Origin: a virus
Taxonomy: Duplodnaviria; Heunggongvirae; Uroviricota; Caudoviricetes
Virus record (IMG/VR): IMGVR_UViG_2541047946_000011
Direction: 5' to 3' (one strand)
DNA length: 14,368 nucleotides
Positions 4,447-14,368 of the stretch are shown here, piece after piece (the first letter of the stretch is position 1; each line of letters begins with the position of its first letter). Below the pieces are notes generated by a model. It was not told the DNA's origin and made no database searches. It saw only the letters and a program-made list of their open reading frames with translations. The position numbers were made by a program, and so were the translations under genes.

Positions 4447-4537
4447 TAGACTGGCCCCCTGAATCACCAGACAACCAATATCACTTATTTAAGTGATAGT
4501 CTTAATACTAGTTTTTAGGCTAGTCATTGGAGAGCAG

Positions 4538-4903
4538 ATGATTGATGTCTTAGGACCGGAGAAACGCAGACGGCGTACCACACAGGAAAAGATCGCAATT
4601 GTTCAGCAGAGCTTTGAACCAGGGATGACGGTCTCCCTCGTTGCCCGGCAACATGGTGTAGCAGCCAGCCAGTTATTTCTCTGGCGTAAGCAATACCAGG
4701 AAGGAAGTCTTACTGCTGTCGCCGCCGGAGAACAGGTTGTTCCTGCCTCTGAACTTGCTGCCGCCATGAAGCAGATTAAAGAACTCCAGCGCCTGCTCGG
4801 CAAGAAAACGATGGAAAATGAACTCCTCAAAGAAGCCGTTGAATATGGACGGGCAAAAAAGTGGATAGCGCACGCGCCCTTATTGCCCGGGGATGGGGAG
4901 TAA
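4538..4903 (+). CDS. insC: IS2 transposase OrfA (InsC)
   Basis: [56 protein letters not shown]... is recognisably IS2 InsC. ATG at 4538 with GGAG at 4529-4532. The track ORF from 4493 includes IS-end sequence upstream of the real start. Confidence 0.9.
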
Positions 4904-5766
4904 GCTTAGTCAGCCGTTGTCTCCGGGTGTCGCGTGCGCAGTTGCACGTCATTCTCAGACGAACCGATGACTGGATGGATGGCCGCCGCAGTCGTCACAC
5001 TGATGATACGGATGTGCTTCTCCGTATACACCATGTTATCGGAGAGCTGCCCACGTATGGTTATCGTCGGGTATGGGCGCTGCTTCGCAGACAGGCAGAA
5101 CTTGATGGTATGCCTGCGATCAATGCCAAACGTGTTTACCGGATCATGCGCCAGAATGCGCTGTTGCTTGAGCGAAAACCTGCTGTACCGCCATCGAAAC
5201 GGGCACATACAGGCAGAGTGGCTGTGAAAGAAAGTAATCAGCGATGGTGCTCTGACGGGTTCGAGTTCCGCTGTGATAACGGAGAAAAACTGCGAGTCAC
5301 GTTCGCGCTGGACTGCTGTGACCGTGAGGCACTGCACTGGGCGGTCACTACGGGCGGCTTCAACAGTGAAACAGTACAGGACGTCATGCTGGGAGCGGTG
5401 GAACGCCGCTTCGGCAACGAGCTTCCGGCGTCTCCAGTAGAGTGGCTGACGGATAATGGTTCATGCTACCGGGCTAATGAAACACGGCAGTTTGCCCGGA
5501 TGTTGGGGCTTGAACCGAAGAGCACGGCGGTGCGGAGTCCGGAGAGTAACGGCATAGCAGAGAGCTTCGTGAAAACGATAAAGCGTGACTACATCAGTGT
5601 CATGCCCAAACCAGACGGGTTAACGGCAGCAAAGAACCTTGCAGAGGCGTTCGAGCATTATAACGAATGGCATCCGCATAGTGCACTGGGTTATCGCTCG
5701 CCACGGGAATATCTACGGCAGCAAGCCAGTAATGGGTTAAGTGATAACAGGTGTCTGGAAATATAG
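4861..5766 (+). CDS. insD: IS2 transposase OrfB (InsD; DDE integrase domain, normally made as an InsCD fusion by -1 frameshift)
   Basis: [77 protein letters not shown]... is recognisably IS2 InsD. It overlaps insC in the -1 frame; slippery AAAAAAG lies at about 4854-4860. Confidence 0.9.
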
Positions 5767-5777
5767 GGGCAAATCCA

Positions 5778-6127: not shown

Positions 6128-6212
6128 GTAAGCGTAAACTGACCGCCGTATGTAGCCATCAGACGAGAATTGGTAACTTAGACGCCCATCTGATATAGAC
6201 GGACATCTAAGT

Positions 6213-6638
6213 ATGGAATTACAGGACTGGCGAAAAGAACCTCGTAAAAACTATTCGAATGAATTCAAACTTCGTATGGTGGAACTGGCATCACAACCTG
6301 GAGCTTGTGTTGCACAGATTGCACGTGAAAATGGCGTCAATGATAATGTTATTTTCAAATGGCTCAGGCTCTGGCAGAACGAAGGGCGTGTTTCGCGGCG
6401 TCTTCCGGTAACGACCTCTTCTGACACTGGCGTTGAATTATTACCTGTAGAAATAACGCCGGATGAGCAGAAAGAACCTGTGGCGGCCATTGCGCCGTCT
6501 TTATCCACTTCCACTCAGACCAGAGTCAGTGCCAGTTCCTGCAAGGTGGAATTCCGTCACGGTAACATGACGCTGGAAAATCCATCGCCAGAGCTGCTCA
6601 CAGTGTTGATCCGTGAACTGACCGGGAGGGGAAGATGA
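6213..6638 (+). CDS. tnpA: IS66-family accessory protein TnpA (orf1)
   Basis: MELQDWRKEPRKNYSNEFKLRMVELASQPGACVAQIARENGVNDNVIFKWLRLW... is typical IS66 orf1; its stop overlaps the tnpB start. Confidence 0.85.
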   Translation: MELQDWRKEPRKNYSNEFKLRMVELASQPGACVAQIARENGVNDNVIFKWLRLWQNEGRVSRRLPVTTSSDTGVELLPVEITPDEQKEPVAAIAPSLSTSTQTRVSASSCKVEFRHGNMTLENPSPELLTVLIRELTGRGR

Positions 6639-6985
6639 TCTCACTCCCATCAGGTACCCGTATCTGGCTCGTTGCCGGCGTTACCGATATGCGTAAATCC
6701 TTCAACGGACTGGGAGAACAGGTACAACATGTGCTGAATGATAATCCCTTCTCCGGTCACCTGTTTATCTTCCGTGGCCGACGGGGTGACACCGTCAAAA
6801 TTCTTTGGGCTGATGCTGATGGTCTGTGCCTGTTCACCAAACGCCTGGAGGAAGGCCAGTTTATCTGGCCTGCGGTACGTGACGGCAAGGTATCCATTAC
6901 CCGCTCGCAACTGGCAATGCTCCTCGATAAGCTGGACTGGCGTCAGCCAAAAACATCCAGCCGTAACTCACTGACAATGTTGTAA
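6635..6985 (+). CDS. tnpB: IS66-family accessory protein TnpB (orf2)
   Basis: MISLPSGTRIWLVAGVTDMRKSFNGLGEQVQHVLNDNPFSGHLFIFRGRRGDTVKILWADADGLCLFTKRLE... is the highly conserved IS66 orf2. Confidence 0.9.
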   Translation: MISLPSGTRIWLVAGVTDMRKSFNGLGEQVQHVLNDNPFSGHLFIFRGRRGDTVKILWADADGLCLFTKRLEEGQFIWPAVRDGKVSITRSQLAMLLDKLDWRQPKTSSRNSLTML

Positions 6986-7015
6986 AAAACTCCTGACCGC
7001 ATTATAAAAACGGTC

Positions 7016-8629
7016 ATGAGTCAGAAATACCTCATTCGCATCGCAGAGCTGGAAAGGTTGCTCTCTGAGCAGGCTGAAGCCCTCCGTCAGAAAGACCAGC
7101 AACTGAGTCTGGTTGAAGAGACGGAAGCCTTCCTGCGCTCTGCACTGACACGTGCCGAAGAAAAGATCGAAGAAGATGAACGGGAAATAGAACATCTGCG
7201 GGCTCAGATAGAAAAACTGCGCCGGATGCTGTTCGGTACCCGTTCTGAAAAACTGCGTCGTGAAGTTGAACTGGCTGAGGCTCTGCTGAAACAACGTGAA
7301 CAGGACAGCGATCGTTACAGTGGGCGGGAAGACGATCCTCAGGTTCCCCGCCAGTTGCGACAGTCGCGCCATCGTCGTCCGTTACCGGCACACCTTCCCC
7401 GTGAAATACACCGCCTGGAGCCAGAAGAAAGCTGTTGCCCGGAGTGTGGCGGTGAGCTGGATTATCTGGGGGAAGTCAGCGCTGAACAGCTGGAACTGGT
7501 GAGCAGTGCCCTGAAAGTGATCCGCACAGAACGGGTAAAAAAAGCCTGTACAAAATGTGACTGTATTGTTGAAGCACCGGCGCCGTCCCGCCCGATAGAG
7601 CGTGGTATCGCGGGCCCCGGATTACTTGCCCGCGTGTTAACGGGAAAATACTGCGAACATCTGCCACTGTATCGTCAGAGTGAAATCTTTGCCCGCCAGG
7701 GTGTCGAACTGAGCCGGGCCTTACTCTCCAACTGGGTTGACGCGTGCTGCCAGTTAATGACACCGGTGAATGATGCCCTGTACCGTTATGTAATGAACAC
7801 CCGCAAGGTTCACACTGATGACACACCGGTAAAGGTACTGGCACCGGGTCAGAAAAAGGCGAAAACAGGGCGTATCTGGACGTATGTCCGGGATGATCGC
7901 AATGTGGGTTCGTCATCTCCTCCAGCGGTCTGGTTCGCGTACTCGCCGAACCGGCAGGGGAAACACCCGGAGCAACACCTCCGCCCCTTCCGGGGTATCC
8001 TGCAGGCGGATGCGTTCACAGGTTACGACAGGTTGTTCAGTGCAGAACGTGAAGGTGGTGCACTGACAGAAGTTGCGTGCTGGGCCCATGCCCGGCGAAA
8101 AATCCACGATGTATACATCAGCAGCAAAAGTGCGACGGCAGAAGAAGCCCTGAAGCGAATCAGTGAACTGTACGCCATCGAGGATGAAATACGGGGATTA
8201 CCGGAGTCAGAGCGTCTTGCCGTCAGGCAGCAGCGAAGCAAAGTGTTACTGACGTCGCTGCATGAATGGATGGTGGAGAAGAATGGTACGCTGTCGAAAA
8301 AATCCAGACTGGGCGAAGCGTTCAGCTATGTACTGAATCAGTGGGATGCCCTCTGTTATTACAGTGATGACGGTCTGGCGGAGGCGGATAATAATGCTGC
8401 GGAAAGAGCGCTTCGTGCAGTCTGTCTCGGAAAGAAAAACTTTATGTTCTTTGGCAGCGATCACGGCGGCGAGCGTGGAGCACTGTTGTACGGGCTGATC
8501 GGCACCTGCCGTCTGAACGGTATCGATCCGGAAGCGTATCTGCGCCATATCCTGAGCGTACTGCCGGAATGGCCTTCCAACCGAGTTGACGAACTCCTGC
8601 CATGGAACGTAGTACTCACCAATAAATAA
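7016..8629 (+). CDS. tnpC: IS66-family transposase TnpC (orf3)
   Basis: 537 aa with an N-terminal coiled-coil/leucine-zipper region, a CxxC...CxxC zinc-finger-like motif (CPECGGE...CTKCDC) and a DDE-type core, as expected for IS66 transposases. Confidence 0.9.
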   Translation: MSQKYLIRIAELERLLSEQAEALRQKDQQLSLVEETEAFLRSALTRAEEKIEEDEREIEHLRAQIEKLRRMLFGTRSEKLRREVELAEALLKQREQDSDRYSGREDDPQVPRQLRQSRHRRPLPAHLPREIHRLEPEESCCPECGGELDYLGEVSAEQLELVSSALKVIRTERVKKACTKCDCIVEAPAPSRPIERGIAGPGLLARVLTGKYCEHLPLYRQSEIFARQGVELSRALLSNWVDACCQLMTPVNDALYRYVMNTRKVHTDDTPVKVLAPGQKKAKTGRIWTYVRDDRNVGSSSPPAVWFAYSPNRQGKHPEQHLRPFRGILQADAFTGYDRLFSAEREGGALTEVACWAHARRKIHDVYISSKSATAEEALKRISELYAIEDEIRGLPESERLAVRQQRSKVLLTSLHEWMVEKNGTLSKKSRLGEAFSYVLNQWDALCYYSDDGLAEADNNAAERALRAVCLGKKNFMFFGSDHGGERGALLYGLIGTCRLNGIDPEAYLRHILSVLPEWPSNRVDELLPWNVVLTNK

Positions 8630-8659
8630 GCGTCAATACGGTGCTCCGTTGACGCTTAC

Positions 8660-9262: not shown

Positions 9263-10078
9263 TCAACTAACAACCCAATCATCAGATAATATATCACTGA
9301 TATTGAAAATATAGGTATGGTTATTTTTACCATCTGAAATGACGATTTTTTTTAAGTTGAATCTTTCTGATATGATATGCGTTGCAAATTGTGGGATTAT
9401 TAAAAACAAAGCCTCTACCTTACTGATTAATTCAATGTTGACTTTAGGTCTGAAGTTTGCATCATGAACCACTTTGTGCCTAATGTAAAATGCTTCCTCT
9501 ATGAGGGCTCTCCAGTCTGGAAATATATTTTCTATCGATAAACCTTGGGAAATTTGGCCACTCAGACCGCAAGGAGATATATTAGTTGTACATATGTAGT
9601 TTAAAAAACTCTCACCCCACATGCCATTATATGCTTCTTCAAGGTCGTTTAAGTTTTGAAAGTTAAAGCTTTTACTCAATAACTCTGATAGATTTATCTC
9701 AGTGTTTATATTGATAGATGTTTCTGTTCTCATTTTAGATAGTAGTGTTGTAATTCTAGATTCATCAACTGAATGCACGAAAACAAAAACGTCTCTAAAA
9801 TATGTTTCCCAGCAACTGATTAGAAATACAAAATATTGTCGATATGCTGTTTTATAAATATCTATTTTCTTATCTTTCGTTGAAATAAGTGAATGCATAA
9901 GTCGACAATTTTCTGCAAAATTTAGTAGGAAAGACATTGAGAAGTCTTCTATAGCTCCTCTTGATTCGCGAAGAGATAGCAATTCATCAATAATTTTTTT
10001 ATTGATTTTCCTAATCTTTTTCAATTGCATGCCTCGTTTTTGCTTAAGTAAAGTTGATTTTGGAGTTTCGTCAATCAT
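9263..10078 (-). CDS. Hypothetical 271-aa protein, strongly AT-rich; HEPN-like Rx4H motif (possible Abi-like RNase)
   Basis: Long minus-strand ORF, visibly lower GC than its neighbours, Lys/Ile/Asn-rich. Contains ...EEAFYIRHKVVHDANF... (R-x4-H) in the C-terminal half. No other family recognised by eye. Confidence 0.6.
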   Translation of the reverse strand: MIDETPKSTLLKQKRGMQLKKIRKINKKIIDELLSLRESRGAIEDFSMSFLLNFAENCRLMHSLISTKDKKIDIYKTAYRQYFVFLISCWETYFRDVFVFVHSVDESRITTLLSKMRTETSININTEINLSELLSKSFNFQNLNDLEEAYNGMWGESFLNYICTTNISPCGLSGQISQGLSIENIFPDWRALIEEAFYIRHKVVHDANFRPKVNIELISKVEALFLIIPQFATHIISERFNLKKIVISDGKNNHTYIFNISDILSDDWVVS

Positions 10079-10554: not shown

Positions 10555-11679
10555 TTAATCGGTAAATTCATAGTTTGGCCGCATTGAGAAACGCCACAGA
10601 GGCAGGCCTCCCCCTTTGTAATCATCAGGGATGGTTACCGTGAAAAGTCTGACATTCTGCCGGGTGTCAACTGACCTGATCTGGCTGTCGTGTACAGTCT
10701 GCTCGTTAAAGGCCGACGTGACCAGCGAACTCAGCGTACCTATAAAGTCGAAACCCTGTCTTTTGTAATTTTCGTCGTCTTCCGGGGAAAATGTGTATCG
10801 GATGCTCTCAAGCTGACCATCAGTGAATATTGCCTCCGATCCGGGGCAGAGCCACTCTCCGTAGCGCATCAGATGAAACGCCGTGTTCATTTCAAATTTA
10901 TCCGTTACTTGTCTGTCATTGCAGTAAATTTTAATCTCGCCAATTGTAAAATGGGCGATGCCTTCGGGACTAACTGAAACTTCTTTGGTCCGGTCGGGGA
11001 TAAGCTCAAAAACCAGATCGGGTTCTGTTGCTATCGATAGGTCGCCCAGCAGGTACATCTCACTTTTTGCGAGCGCCGAGGCCGGCGTCAAGGTATGTTC
11101 ACGCTCTAGCTCCTTCATTGAGGAGCGTGCAACCAGCGCCCACCGGCGCAGCATCCTGATGTAGATGGCATAATAAACTGGAATACCATGGAGCTCACCG
11201 TACTTTTCAACCTTATCACTGTACGATTTCTTCAGGCGATAATCGTCAGCCACGTCATCCGCGTTAAAGTTTTTTACTTCCACAAAGATCTGACGGCGAT
11301 CCTTCAGTATAATGCGATAGTCAGGTGCCACCAGATCGGGATCGGCTGACATCAAGTCTCCGGCGTCTTCCTGTTTAAGAAACTGGCAGTGGTTCAGTGC
11401 GGCGCAAACGTGTTTAAATAGGTTTTCTATTCTTTTCCCGTTCAGCAGAATTGGATTCTGATGGGAAGCGATTAATGACGTGGTGACCTTTTGTATAAAG
11501 TCATCCTGGTGCTCGGGGTTTTTAATATCGTAATTATAGATCTGGCCCAACGAGGAAAAAAGCTCAAAGGCTTCAAATCGTTCGGGATTCCTCTTGATTC
11601 TTTCCATTAATGACTCCGCAGCTAATAAATACAACGAAATGAGATCACTTGTTTCTCTGAAGTTACCTGAAAACTGCAT
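10555..11679 (-). CDS. Hypothetical 374-aa protein with a PD-(D/E)xK nuclease-like motif (candidate defense effector)
   Basis: Minus-strand ORF starting 69 bp downstream of the FRG gene stop. Contains ...LVAPDYRIILKDRRQIFVEVKNFNADD..., i.e. a D in a hydrophobic strand followed 15 residues later by E-V-K, the spacing and context of restriction-endonuclease-fold active sites. No strong Shine-Dalgarno before the first ATG, so the start is uncertain. Confidence 0.7.
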   Translation of the reverse strand: MQFSGNFRETSDLISLYLLAAESLMERIKRNPERFEAFELFSSLGQIYNYDIKNPEHQDDFIQKVTTSLIASHQNPILLNGKRIENLFKHVCAALNHCQFLKQEDAGDLMSADPDLVAPDYRIILKDRRQIFVEVKNFNADDVADDYRLKKSYSDKVEKYGELHGIPVYYAIYIRMLRRWALVARSSMKELEREHTLTPASALAKSEMYLLGDLSIATEPDLVFELIPDRTKEVSVSPEGIAHFTIGEIKIYCNDRQVTDKFEMNTAFHLMRYGEWLCPGSEAIFTDGQLESIRYTFSPEDDENYKRQGFDFIGTLSSLVTSAFNEQTVHDSQIRSVDTRQNVRLFTVTIPDDYKGGGLPLWRFSMRPNYEFTD

Positions 11680-11748: not shown

Positions 11749-13119
11749 TCAGATTCGTCCATCGTATAGTTTTGCAATTTCCGTAGCAGCCTTCTCAATG
11801 CCGGGGTACACCGTGCTTTCGTTAATGCCAAGGCGGCTCAGTTGCTGCATCAGATGCTCTTTGTTTCTAATAACAAGCTTTTTGATGTTCAGCGTACTGA
11901 GTCCCGTTTCCGGTAGGTCTACGTTTTCACCAAAGAGCAGGAAAGCGCCTGATTGGGACGAAATACGTGCGTTACTGAGCCTACCTTTGACCACAACAAT
12001 TTTACTTAGGTGGACCGGATCGATGATGCTTTTGAAATAGGACTTTTCATCGCGGATCAGGTGTAGTAGTTGTCCGCACTCTTCAGATTCGTTAAACGCC
12101 GGAATGGTGAGATTAGTTTTCAGGCTGCTTTTGAAACGAGAGGGAAGACGGGAAAGATTGGCTATGCAACTTACGGTATCCGAGTCGAAAAACTTAATTT
12201 CACTTTTGGGCGTCGTCAGAATAATGACGTTCCCGTCAATTTCATGATTATTTTCATCGTGCTTGATTTTAGAGCAGGCAAAATATAGTGCGATCAAGGG
12301 GTTTGTTGATACATCAAGCAGGCGTGTGGGTAGGCCATAGTGTTGCATGCGCACGAGTTTATCTAGCATATACCGATCGTCTTTGAACTCGGCGGGCTGC
12401 ACGGTCAGCAGCTCTGTTATCATGTCCGATTCGTGATGGCGGTAGCGATAGTTACCCTGAGTATCCTTGCGGAACAGTGAGGGTTCCAGTTGGTAGCTGA
12501 TGTCCGAGTGACCGCGGTAAAATACCTCTTCATCGTTTCCCTGTGTATGATCGAGTATCACCTGCAAGTACTGATTGATATTCGCAATGATCTCTAGTTC
12601 TTCATTATTCTCCGGTGCTTCCGCACTCGCTGTTGCGGGCTCAACATTAGAATAGCCTTCAAGGCCTAAAACACGCAGAATCTCATTTACGGAAATCTCT
12701 TTGACCGCCCAGAACGTTCTGTTTAGTCCGAAACTGCCCAGCTCCAGCTCACTTACGTACTCTTTATCGCTGGTTAAGGGCTTGTAGCCGATATCACTGG
12801 TAATCTCATAATCAAACGCTAAAACTTTTTCTCTGTTATACACGGACGTACTTATCTTGCTGATTTTTCCTAAGCGGATGTGGCTGAAATAACCTATTTT
12901 TTCATTATCTTCATCGAATTCAATTTCCGGCTCGGACATAAATACAACGGGCAGTTCCTGAAGAAAATGATAGGTTTTTTCAGTCAGGGGAAGCAATCTG
13001 CTTCTAAGAGACTCTGGCGTGGATTCGAAGAGTCGCGACACAGGGAAAGAGTCATTGCCACTGGGTTCAGAAAAAAAAGTGTAGTATTTGGGGGTTCCGA
13101 CAACGATAAGATTCAGCAT
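11749..13119 (-). CDS. Hypothetical 456-aa protein with an FRG domain (candidate defense sensor/partner), first gene of the minus-strand pair
   Basis: Contains FYRGHSDISYQLEPSLFRK, ...MQHYGLPTRLLDVSTNPLIALYFAC and ...NARISSQSGAFLLFG, which match the FRG-domain hallmark motifs as I remember them. The N-terminal ~190 aa are unrecognised. GAGGA lies 8 nt upstream of the ATG at 13119. Confidence 0.75.
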   Translation of the reverse strand: MLNLIVVGTPKYYTFFSEPSGNDSFPVSRLFESTPESLRSRLLPLTEKTYHFLQELPVVFMSEPEIEFDEDNEKIGYFSHIRLGKISKISTSVYNREKVLAFDYEITSDIGYKPLTSDKEYVSELELGSFGLNRTFWAVKEISVNEILRVLGLEGYSNVEPATASAEAPENNEELEIIANINQYLQVILDHTQGNDEEVFYRGHSDISYQLEPSLFRKDTQGNYRYRHHESDMITELLTVQPAEFKDDRYMLDKLVRMQHYGLPTRLLDVSTNPLIALYFACSKIKHDENNHEIDGNVIILTTPKSEIKFFDSDTVSCIANLSRLPSRFKSSLKTNLTIPAFNESEECGQLLHLIRDEKSYFKSIIDPVHLSKIVVVKGRLSNARISSQSGAFLLFGENVDLPETGLSTLNIKKLVIRNKEHLMQQLSRLGINESTVYPGIEKAATEIAKLYDGRI

Positions 13120-13596
13120 ACTTGCGATCCTCGCATAAGTTAAGTTTCTCTCTCATCATGCCAGACTTGATAATTATTTAAACATCAGCGCTGCTATTTA
13201 TATTTCACACCTTTTTGATCCGAAACGACACTGCCATCGGTAAGCCCGGATGATACATTCTGAAAATTCATCAGAAAAATTTACATCACGCTTTACTCCT
13301 GACGTATATCAGCACTAACGTGCCATTGCGCACGCGCTAGCTATTTAGTAGCGCGTTTCGGCGAAAAGAGATTCGGTAGTCAATGACTATATTTCGCTCA
13401 TAACAGACATTCACTACAGTTGTGGCAGAAAGGTATGCATGCTGGGTGTGGGGAAGTCGTGAAAGAAAAGAAGACTGCTTCGCCGTTTGTCGTCACTGCT
13501 ATCTTCTTATTGCTTATGAAGGTCGTAGTGGGGCACACAAAGCTTTGCACTGGATTGCAAGGCGTTGTGCTTCTCTTGAGTGCGACATGTTTTTAT

Positions 13597-13640
13597 GTCA
13601 AAAAATTAGCGCAAGAAGACAAAAAATCACCTTGCGCTAA
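13597..13640 (-). terminator. Lambda tI/sib-like hairpin terminator in the attR P-arm-proximal region
   Basis: Perfect 10-bp inverted repeat TTAGCGCAAG (13606-13615) / CTTGCGCTAA (13631-13640) with a 15-nt loop. On the minus strand it is followed by TTTTTTGAC. The surrounding sequence (GCGCTAATGCTCTGTTACAGGTCACTAAT...) matches my memory of the lambda sib/tI region. Confidence 0.6.
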
Positions 13641-13809
13641 TGCTCTGTTACAGGTCACTAATATCATCTAAGTAGTTGATTCATAGTGACTGCATATGTT
13701 GTGTTTTGGAGTATTATGCAGTCTATCATTTAGACTAAAACTCTCATAACACACTGATATTAATGATTTTTACTGTTTATCGTTCAGCTTTTTTATACTA
13801 ACTTGAGCG
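13641..13809 (+). other. attR (P arm, core, B'): lambda-type attachment site; core GCTTTTTTATACTAA at 13787-13801
   Basis: The P arm (CTGTTACAGGTCACTAATATCATCTAAGTAGTTGATTCATAGTGACTGCATATGTTGTGTT) closely matches the lambda attP P arm, including arm-type Int-site-like GGTCACTAAT and AGTGACTGCAT. The 15-bp core is identical to lambda. The right flank CTTGAGCGAAACG is the bacterial attB B' side. Confidence 0.85.
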
Positions 13810-13860
13810 AAACGGGAAGGTAAAAAGACAAAAAGTTGTTTTTAATACCTTTAAGTGATA

Positions 13861-13883
13861 CCAGATGGCATTGCGCCATCTGG
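13861..13883 (-). terminator. Perfect 9-bp stem hairpin downstream of ybhB (possible weak terminator or structural element)
   Basis: CCAGATGGC (13861-13869), loop ATTGC, GCCATCTGG (13875-13883). No clean T-run directly after it on either strand, so terminator function is uncertain. Confidence 0.3.
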
Positions 13884-13891
13884 CAGAGTGA

Positions 13892-14368
13892 TTAACTAAA
13901 CATCGCAGTAATCGAGGCGCTTGCCAGAGAGTGGAAATGAACGTTAAACCCGACCATCGCGCCGCTGGCACCTTCATCGACATCAATACGTTCTATATCC
14001 AGCGCGTGAACGGTAAAAATGTAGCGATGAGTTTCGCCTTTCGGCGGTGCTGCGCCATCGTACCCGGTTTTACCAAAGTCGGTACGCGTCTGCAAAACGC
14101 CGTCTGGCATTGCTACCAGACCAGAGCCAAACCCTTGCGGTAATACGCGGGTATCAGCGGGTAAGTTAACAACTACCCAGTGCCACCAGCCGGAGCCGGT
14201 TGGCGCATCCGGGTCGTAGCAGGTGACAACAAAACTTTTCGTTCCCGCAGGAACATCATCCCACGCCAGATGCGGTGAAATATTATCGCCATCGTAACCC
14301 ATGCCGTTAAAGACATGACGATGCGGCAATTTATCGCCATCGCGCAGATCGTTACTGATGAGTTTCAT
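13892..14368 (-). CDS. ybhB: PEBP-family protein YbhB (UPF0098 / kinase-inhibitor-like), host chromosomal gene next to attB-lambda
   Basis: Complete 158-aa minus-strand ORF (MKLISNDLRDGDKLPHRHVFNGMGYDGDNISPHLAWDDVPAGTKSFVVTCYDPDAPTGSGWWHWVVVNLPADTR...). Its start codon is the last three bases of the window. Recognised as E. coli YbhB, whose chromosomal position beside the lambda attachment site agrees with the attR call. Confidence 0.85.
   Translation of the reverse strand: MKLISNDLRDGDKLPHRHVFNGMGYDGDNISPHLAWDDVPAGTKSFVVTCYDPDAPTGSGWWHWVVVNLPADTRVLPQGFGSGLVAMPDGVLQTRTDFGKTGYDGAAPPKGETHRYIFTVHALDIERIDVDEGASGAMVGFNVHFHSLASASITAMFS

Follow-up and report, generated by a model that had tools for sequence, protein, structure and literature searches.

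At the right end of the window (the whole 14,368-nt stretch of DNA analysed here), the host gene ybhB is transcribed on the minus strand toward a 15-bp sequence, GCTTTTTTATACTAA. To the left of this sequence follow sites for recombination proteins, a hairpin, a non-coding linker of about 170 bp and three minus-strand open reading frames (ORFs). The ORF nearest to the hairpin, at 11749-13119, encodes a 456-aa protein with an FRG domain (E = 4.6e-22) that matches the PADLOC candidate defence system PDC-S15 (E = 7e-99), and it holds the slot and orientation that ea59 has in lambda, in the b-region downstream of tI. The 350-aa protein encoded at 10555-11607 has no match in Pfam (even at E <= 10), NCBIfam or PADLOC, and the earlier note's description of the partner of the FRG gene as a nuclease finds no support in these three collections. 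The 271-aa protein encoded at 9263-10078 gives a sub-threshold match to HEPN RiboL-PSP. The same cargo is present in other E. coli prophages that have a thrW-type att site. Further to the left, IS2 (4447-5777) and ISEc23 of the IS66 family (6128-8658) interrupt side tail-fibre genes that are intact in PhiR11_1, a phage of E. coli ECOR13. A side tail-fibre (stf-like) gene of the window also contains two 168-bp direct repeats (1666-1833 and 1855-2022) that are 87.5% identical to each other.

The prophage-chromosome junction and its arm sites

The features between the linker and the right end of the window are as follows, from left to right.

13599-13647, minus strand: extended sib duplex, predicted only in read-through RNA; centroid fold with 5 additional pairs past a one-base mismatch, using the U-run
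13600-13641, minus strand: tI intrinsic terminator and core of sib; 10-bp stem, inner 3-bp stem and loop, U6 at 13605-13600
13652-13661, plus strand: arm-type Int site P1, AGGTCACTAA; within the "int 1" site of lambda (27583-27602), which maps to 13646-13665 with 19/20 identical
13669-13681, minus strand: IHF site H1, AATCAACTACTTA; 13/13 identical to lambda and a perfect match to the IHF consensus WATCAANNNNTTR
13683-13692, minus strand: arm-type Int site P2, CAGTCACTAT; within the "int 2" site of lambda, which maps to 13678-13697 with 20/20 identical; no mismatch to the arm consensus
13695-13707, plus strand: presumed Xis site X1, TATGTTGTGTTTT; 13/13 identical to lambda
13708-13786, plus strand: proximal P arm with X1.5, X2/Fis, H2 and the left part of core-type site C; 53/79 identical to lambda
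13715-13727, plus strand: X2/Fis; X2 10/13 identical to lambda (three changes), Fis region diverged
13747-13759, minus strand: IHF site H2, TATCAGTGTGTTA; one mismatch to the IHF consensus
13787-13801, plus strand: common core O, the prophage-chromosome crossover; exact and unique in the window
13802-13891, strand not applicable: host B' arm and intergenic DNA between attB and ybhB; identical to MG1655
13892-14368, minus strand: ybhB, 158 aa, transcribed toward attR; from the ORF list, and annotated "ybhB kinase inhibitor" in all matching genomes

The core occurs as an exact match at 13787-13801, precisely where the earlier note had placed it, and no second match exists in the 14.4-kb window even when up to two mismatches are allowed (0.05 expected by chance). 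The same 15-mer is common to the attP of lambda, the attB of E. coli K-12, the attP of PhiR11_1_star (the excised form of PhiR11_1) and the attL of E. coli LC-1302-2020. From the core to the end of the window (13787-14368), all 582 nucleotides are identical to the B' arm and ybhB of MG1655, so the attB flank that had been proposed on this side is indeed there; it includes the B' core-type site CAAGTTAGT at 13797-13805 on the minus strand. Relative to K-12 attB (ybhC/ybhB), the core and the whole right flank are unchanged, whereas the B arm on the ybhC side is replaced by a phage P arm. That P arm, likewise recognised in the earlier note, belongs to a segment (13394-13805) that aligns in megablast to lambda 27331-27742 with 89% identity (E = 6e-143), and many relatives of lambda match it too. 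Relative to lambda attP, by contrast, the window is a recombined site, with B' and ybhB at the right in place of the P' arm and int.

In a five-way alignment of the window with lambda attP, K-12 attB, the LC-1302-2020 attL and the PhiR11_1_star attP, the phage P arm lies to the left of the core and the bacterial B' arm to its right. Thus, the joint is an attR (P-O-B') at the ybhC/ybhB site that lambda classically uses. Since the strands are exchanged inside the 7-bp overlap TTTATAC, at 13792-13798 of the core, the junction can be placed no more finely than the shared 15-bp core. At that resolution the right end of the prophage was correctly assigned before, and the alignments to lambda attP and E. 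coli attB that had been suggested as a check return a matching core and matching arm sites P1, P2 and H1. We are therefore highly confident that 13597-13809 represents the attR of a lambda-type prophage, closest to PhiR11_1 and integrated at the classical lambda attB, with a P arm that carries tI/sib.

The names of the arm sites come from knowledge of lambda attP, as does the presumed position of X1, while identities and coordinates were computed by alignment to lambda. In comparison with the lambda P arm and its tI/sib (27538-27738; NC_001416), the core, the P1 core, H1, P2, X1, both hairpin arms and the U-run are identical. There is not a single indel between the 3' arm of the hairpin and the core, such that a window coordinate equals the lambda coordinate minus 13937, and P1, P2 and H1 lie at lambda spacing to the left of the core, as in the left flank of an attR. 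Conservation is nevertheless uneven along the arm. The distal part with P1, H1, P2 and X1 (13631-13707) is 76/77 identical to lambda, whereas the proximal part (X1.5 to H2) falls to 67%, again without indels and with the spacing kept. In the alignment this proximal arm is closer to the arms of PDP110P1, 434 and HK97 than to that of lambda. As judged from these alignments, its divergence is not unusual, since PDP110P1, 434 and HK97 integrate via the same core with similar variants; by analogy with these variants, binding of Xis, Fis and IHF at X2/Fis and H2 is assumed.

The host flank has a structure of its own. An 11-bp GC-rich hairpin lacking a U-run is located at 13859-13885 on the minus strand, about 7 nt past the stop codon of ybhB, in DNA identical to K-12, and folding of the surrounding 99-nt region gives z = -4.6. 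Whether this hairpin terminates or merely stabilises the bioA-ybhB transcript decides if RNA gets to attR.

The tI/sib hairpin

The arms TTAGCGCAAG (13606-13615) and CTTGCGCTAA (13631-13640) form 10 perfect pairs, and an A6 run at 13600-13605 on the plus strand places U6 directly 3' of the stem on the minus strand. Folding of the minus-strand RNA gives -19.2 kcal/mol (z = -4.95), a value reached by 0 of 200 shuffled sequences. The 10-bp stem and the minus-strand T-run described in the earlier note are thus present and match lambda tI/sib arm for arm; its orientation also holds, with the terminator facing transcripts that run from ybhB into the prophage. The hairpin sits just outside P1 on the int-sense strand, as it does in lambda, with 11 nt between the end of the stem and the P1 core, and both its spacing to the core and its strand relative to int are those of lambda. 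Its loop has one A more than that of lambda, and the fold predicted for read-through RNA lengthens the stem by 5 pairs in the window, against 6 for lambda, in the same overall arrangement.

The same two arm sequences occur in lambda, 434, HK97, HK022, PDP110P1 and a Salmonella P22-like phage. The homologous bases are annotated as "transcription terminator tI" in O276, as "terminator" in 434 and as "sib retroregulation site" in HK97, and in these three phages the hairpin has the same sequence, and the same position relative to a lambda-identical core, as in the window. By the measure of its sequence, the hairpin is lambda tI/sib. A search of Rfam over 13100-13950, at gathering thresholds and at E <= 1, returned no family covering sib, and the weak matches to CncR1 and mir-242_2 lie far below threshold. 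A generic scan for terminators passed over tI, since it limits the loop to 3-8 nt and the stem of tI encloses an interior loop and an inner stem. The scan did list two weak plus-strand hairpins at 13542-13586, neither of which is kept as a terminator in lambda.

A sib-like hairpin also occurs in PPompW prophages (PPompW_132418, about 210-245), where a change in the stem produces a C-A mismatch in the int-sense RNA and a G-U pair on the opposite strand; there, a lambda-like variant of the core precedes a B'-like flank.

The other prophage end and the decay of the lineage

The matching attL beside int, which the earlier note had proposed to look for, lies outside the window and is found in near-identical genomes. 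E. coli LC-1302-2020 is 99.993% identical to the window (one mismatch), including the IS2 and ISEc23 copies. Its attL (L005 26303-26317) reads gttgaagcct-GCTTTTTTATACTAA-gttggcattataaaaaagc, with a P' side that starts gttggcatta, and hence joins the B arm through the core to the P' arm of lambda; it adjoins int and ybhC, about 43 kb from attR. In MMC-J-0105 and FDAARGOS_1249, attL is implied by the adjacency of int and ybhC. Among 5426 complete E. coli genomes, about 147 have a P-arm/ybhB joint of this kind.

An intact version of the prophage is known from ECOR13. PhiR11_1 and PhiR11_1_star (PV340547 and PV340548) match the window at 100% over 13143-13785 and at 99.8-100% elsewhere in the shared region. 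PhiR11_1 forms plaques, carries the same FRG cargo as the window and encodes lambda-type Int, Xis and N, with Int (353/356) and Xis (71/72) both 99% identical to those of lambda. PhiR11_1_star has the expected recombinant attP, composed of the P arm of the window and the P' arm of lambda. The two prophages differ in their insertions: the IS2 of PhiR11_1 is at the equivalent of window positions 13143-13149, whereas the window has its IS2 and ISEc23 in the tail-fibre genes. The IS2 of PhiR11_1 (L008 47044-48374) sits only some 25-30 bp ahead of the start codon of the FRG gene, which it cuts off from anything upstream. A literature search on PhiR11_1 returned nothing usable.

Among complete genomes, the IS pattern of the window is shared only by MMC-J-0105 and LC-1302-2020. 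FDAARGOS_1249 (L023) keeps int, xis, exo, bet, gam and cIII. In MMC-J-0105 (L022 6579-9741), int and xis are intact and the region from there to gene O is gone, and in LC-1302-2020 (L005 24100-26229) xis and the N-terminus of int are additionally lost. The sister genomes thus show stepwise, IS3-family-mediated deletion of the same prophage. Since both genomes that share the IS pattern lack the immunity and early region with pL, N, cI and cII, the attR/sib module in the lineage of the window is probably an inherited relic.

What the hairpin does in lambda and may do in a lysogen

In the circular lambda genome, the hairpin is located downstream of int on the int-sense strand. CII-activated transcripts from pI stop at tI and yield a stable int mRNA, while N-antiterminated transcripts from pL pass tI and form a longer duplex, which is cut by RNase III and exposes the int message to 3'-5' decay. 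Integration splits attP and leaves sib at attR, some 45 kb from int at attL. Because sib is parted from int in this way, induction gives Int together with Xis. Excision then requires a complex on the P arm, with Int at P1, P2 and C/B', IHF at H1 and H2, Xis at X1 and X2, and Fis. Accordingly, sib is established as a terminator and, through RNase III, as a retroregulator of int while the phage genome is excised or infecting (PMC5300877, PMC2951348), a role that the earlier note does not mention. By analogy, termination at the tI of the window, processing by RNase III and excision would work as they do in lambda. In the lineage of the window itself, the only activity left to the hairpin could possibly be an incidental termination of leftward transcripts that arrive from ybhB.

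The earlier note had gone further in proposing that tI shields the cargo genes from host transcripts entering on the ybhB side; read as a selected role, tI in the prophage would be an insulator that stops read-through from bioA-ybhB before it drives the FRG cargo. The geometry would permit this: ybhB points at attR, the stem is followed by its U-run when read on the minus strand, and the ORFs for the FRG, 350-aa and 271-aa proteins all lie on that strand downstream of tI, with the hairpin 480 nt upstream of the FRG start (13119). Moreover, the hairpin 3' of ybhB, without a U-run, stands alone between ybhB and the core, so that some read-through is conceivable, and in genomes that lack pL, N and cI, termination of host transcripts is the sole activity that the tI hairpin could retain. 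However, HK97, HK022 and 434 keep the hairpin nearly unchanged, yet their genes beside it (tfa, stf and a NleC-like gene) are encoded on the opposite strand and run toward it, so that there is nothing to insulate. Homology among these phages begins exactly at the A/T-run of the hairpin, and their left flanks are unrelated. Conversely, in CREC-629 and GN04530 the same FRG cargo and linker are joined to a thrW-type att without a tI-like hairpin; the att site there holds the 3' 40 nt of thrW as an exact match to MG1655 thrW, and ARAGORN found no complete tRNA at the two loci. Across HK97, HK022, 434, CREC-629 and GN04530, the presence and conservation of the hairpin therefore do not track same-strand cargo downstream. 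In lambda, N-antiterminated transcripts reach ea59, at the homologous position, through tI, which makes tI a regulated gate for phage transcription rather than a barrier to the host. No evidence of ybhB read-through was found, and a literature search on ybhB/ybhC transcription in lysogens returned nothing usable and no expression data.

Conservation of the hairpin next to convergent neighbours, together with its absence from thrW-type att sites with FRG cargo, indicates that it belongs to the int/att module of lambda and not to the cargo. The comparison of these loci argues that insulation does not explain why the hairpin is conserved, and we consider a selected role as insulator improbable. 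Incidental termination of host read-through may occur at tI all the same. A related proposal is that in lysogens, and especially in decayed prophages without pL and N, the sib/tI at attR has found a second use as a barrier against biotin-regulated bioA-ybhB read-through into a candidate defence gene (FRG, PDC-S15). We regard this as about equally improbable; if true, the geometry of integration would turn a regulator of int into an insulator of cargo.

The hairpin is almost certainly not part (e.g. the 3' end or terminator) of a small plus-strand gene, the ORF at 13435-13671. This ORF does span the hairpin, lambda and phage 21 have similar residues over its first ~25 positions, and curators of phages 21 and 434 annotated small plus-strand ORFs at the homologous place. 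However, the plus strand has TGCTCTGTT and no T-run after the stem, 434, HK97 and HK022 have unrelated DNA to the left of the hairpin, and the ORF has no hits in Pfam. Indels of 1, 2 and 16-18 bp, moreover, break its frame between the window, lambda, phage 21 and CREC-629, even though the DNA itself is conserved. The frame-breaking indels between relatives also led us to reject the ORF as a conserved gene in its own right; it is annotated as "hypothetical protein" in PhiR11_1 and as "antisense RNA" in DN1/BL21(DE3).

The non-coding linker of about 170 bp between the cargo and tI (13394-13566) is kept in lambda (91%) and in phage 21 (81%), which has an icd-type att, and its homologue in CREC-629 and GN04530 joins the FRG cargo to the thrW-type att. 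It is thus conserved across phages with differing cargo and att modules. The small plus-strand ORF that starts within it measures 53 aa in lambda and is annotated as a "putative membrane protein" in phage 21. The linker may be a recombination linker, or it may be an uncharacterised RNA or regulatory element.

Returning to the attR with its tI/sib, this feature is already known: it is an ordinary, textbook lambda junction, from which nothing is added to lambda site-specific recombination or to the biology of sib, and the idea of an insulator amounts to a modest side hypothesis. To the left of tI, the window has the FRG-domain gene in place of lambda ea59, and the junction thereby shows an FRG cargo in the b-region slot of ea59. 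The sister genomes document the IS-driven decay of a prophage lineage. The principal use of the finding is for annotation, as it locates the right end of a lambda-type prophage at the attB between ybhC and ybhB.
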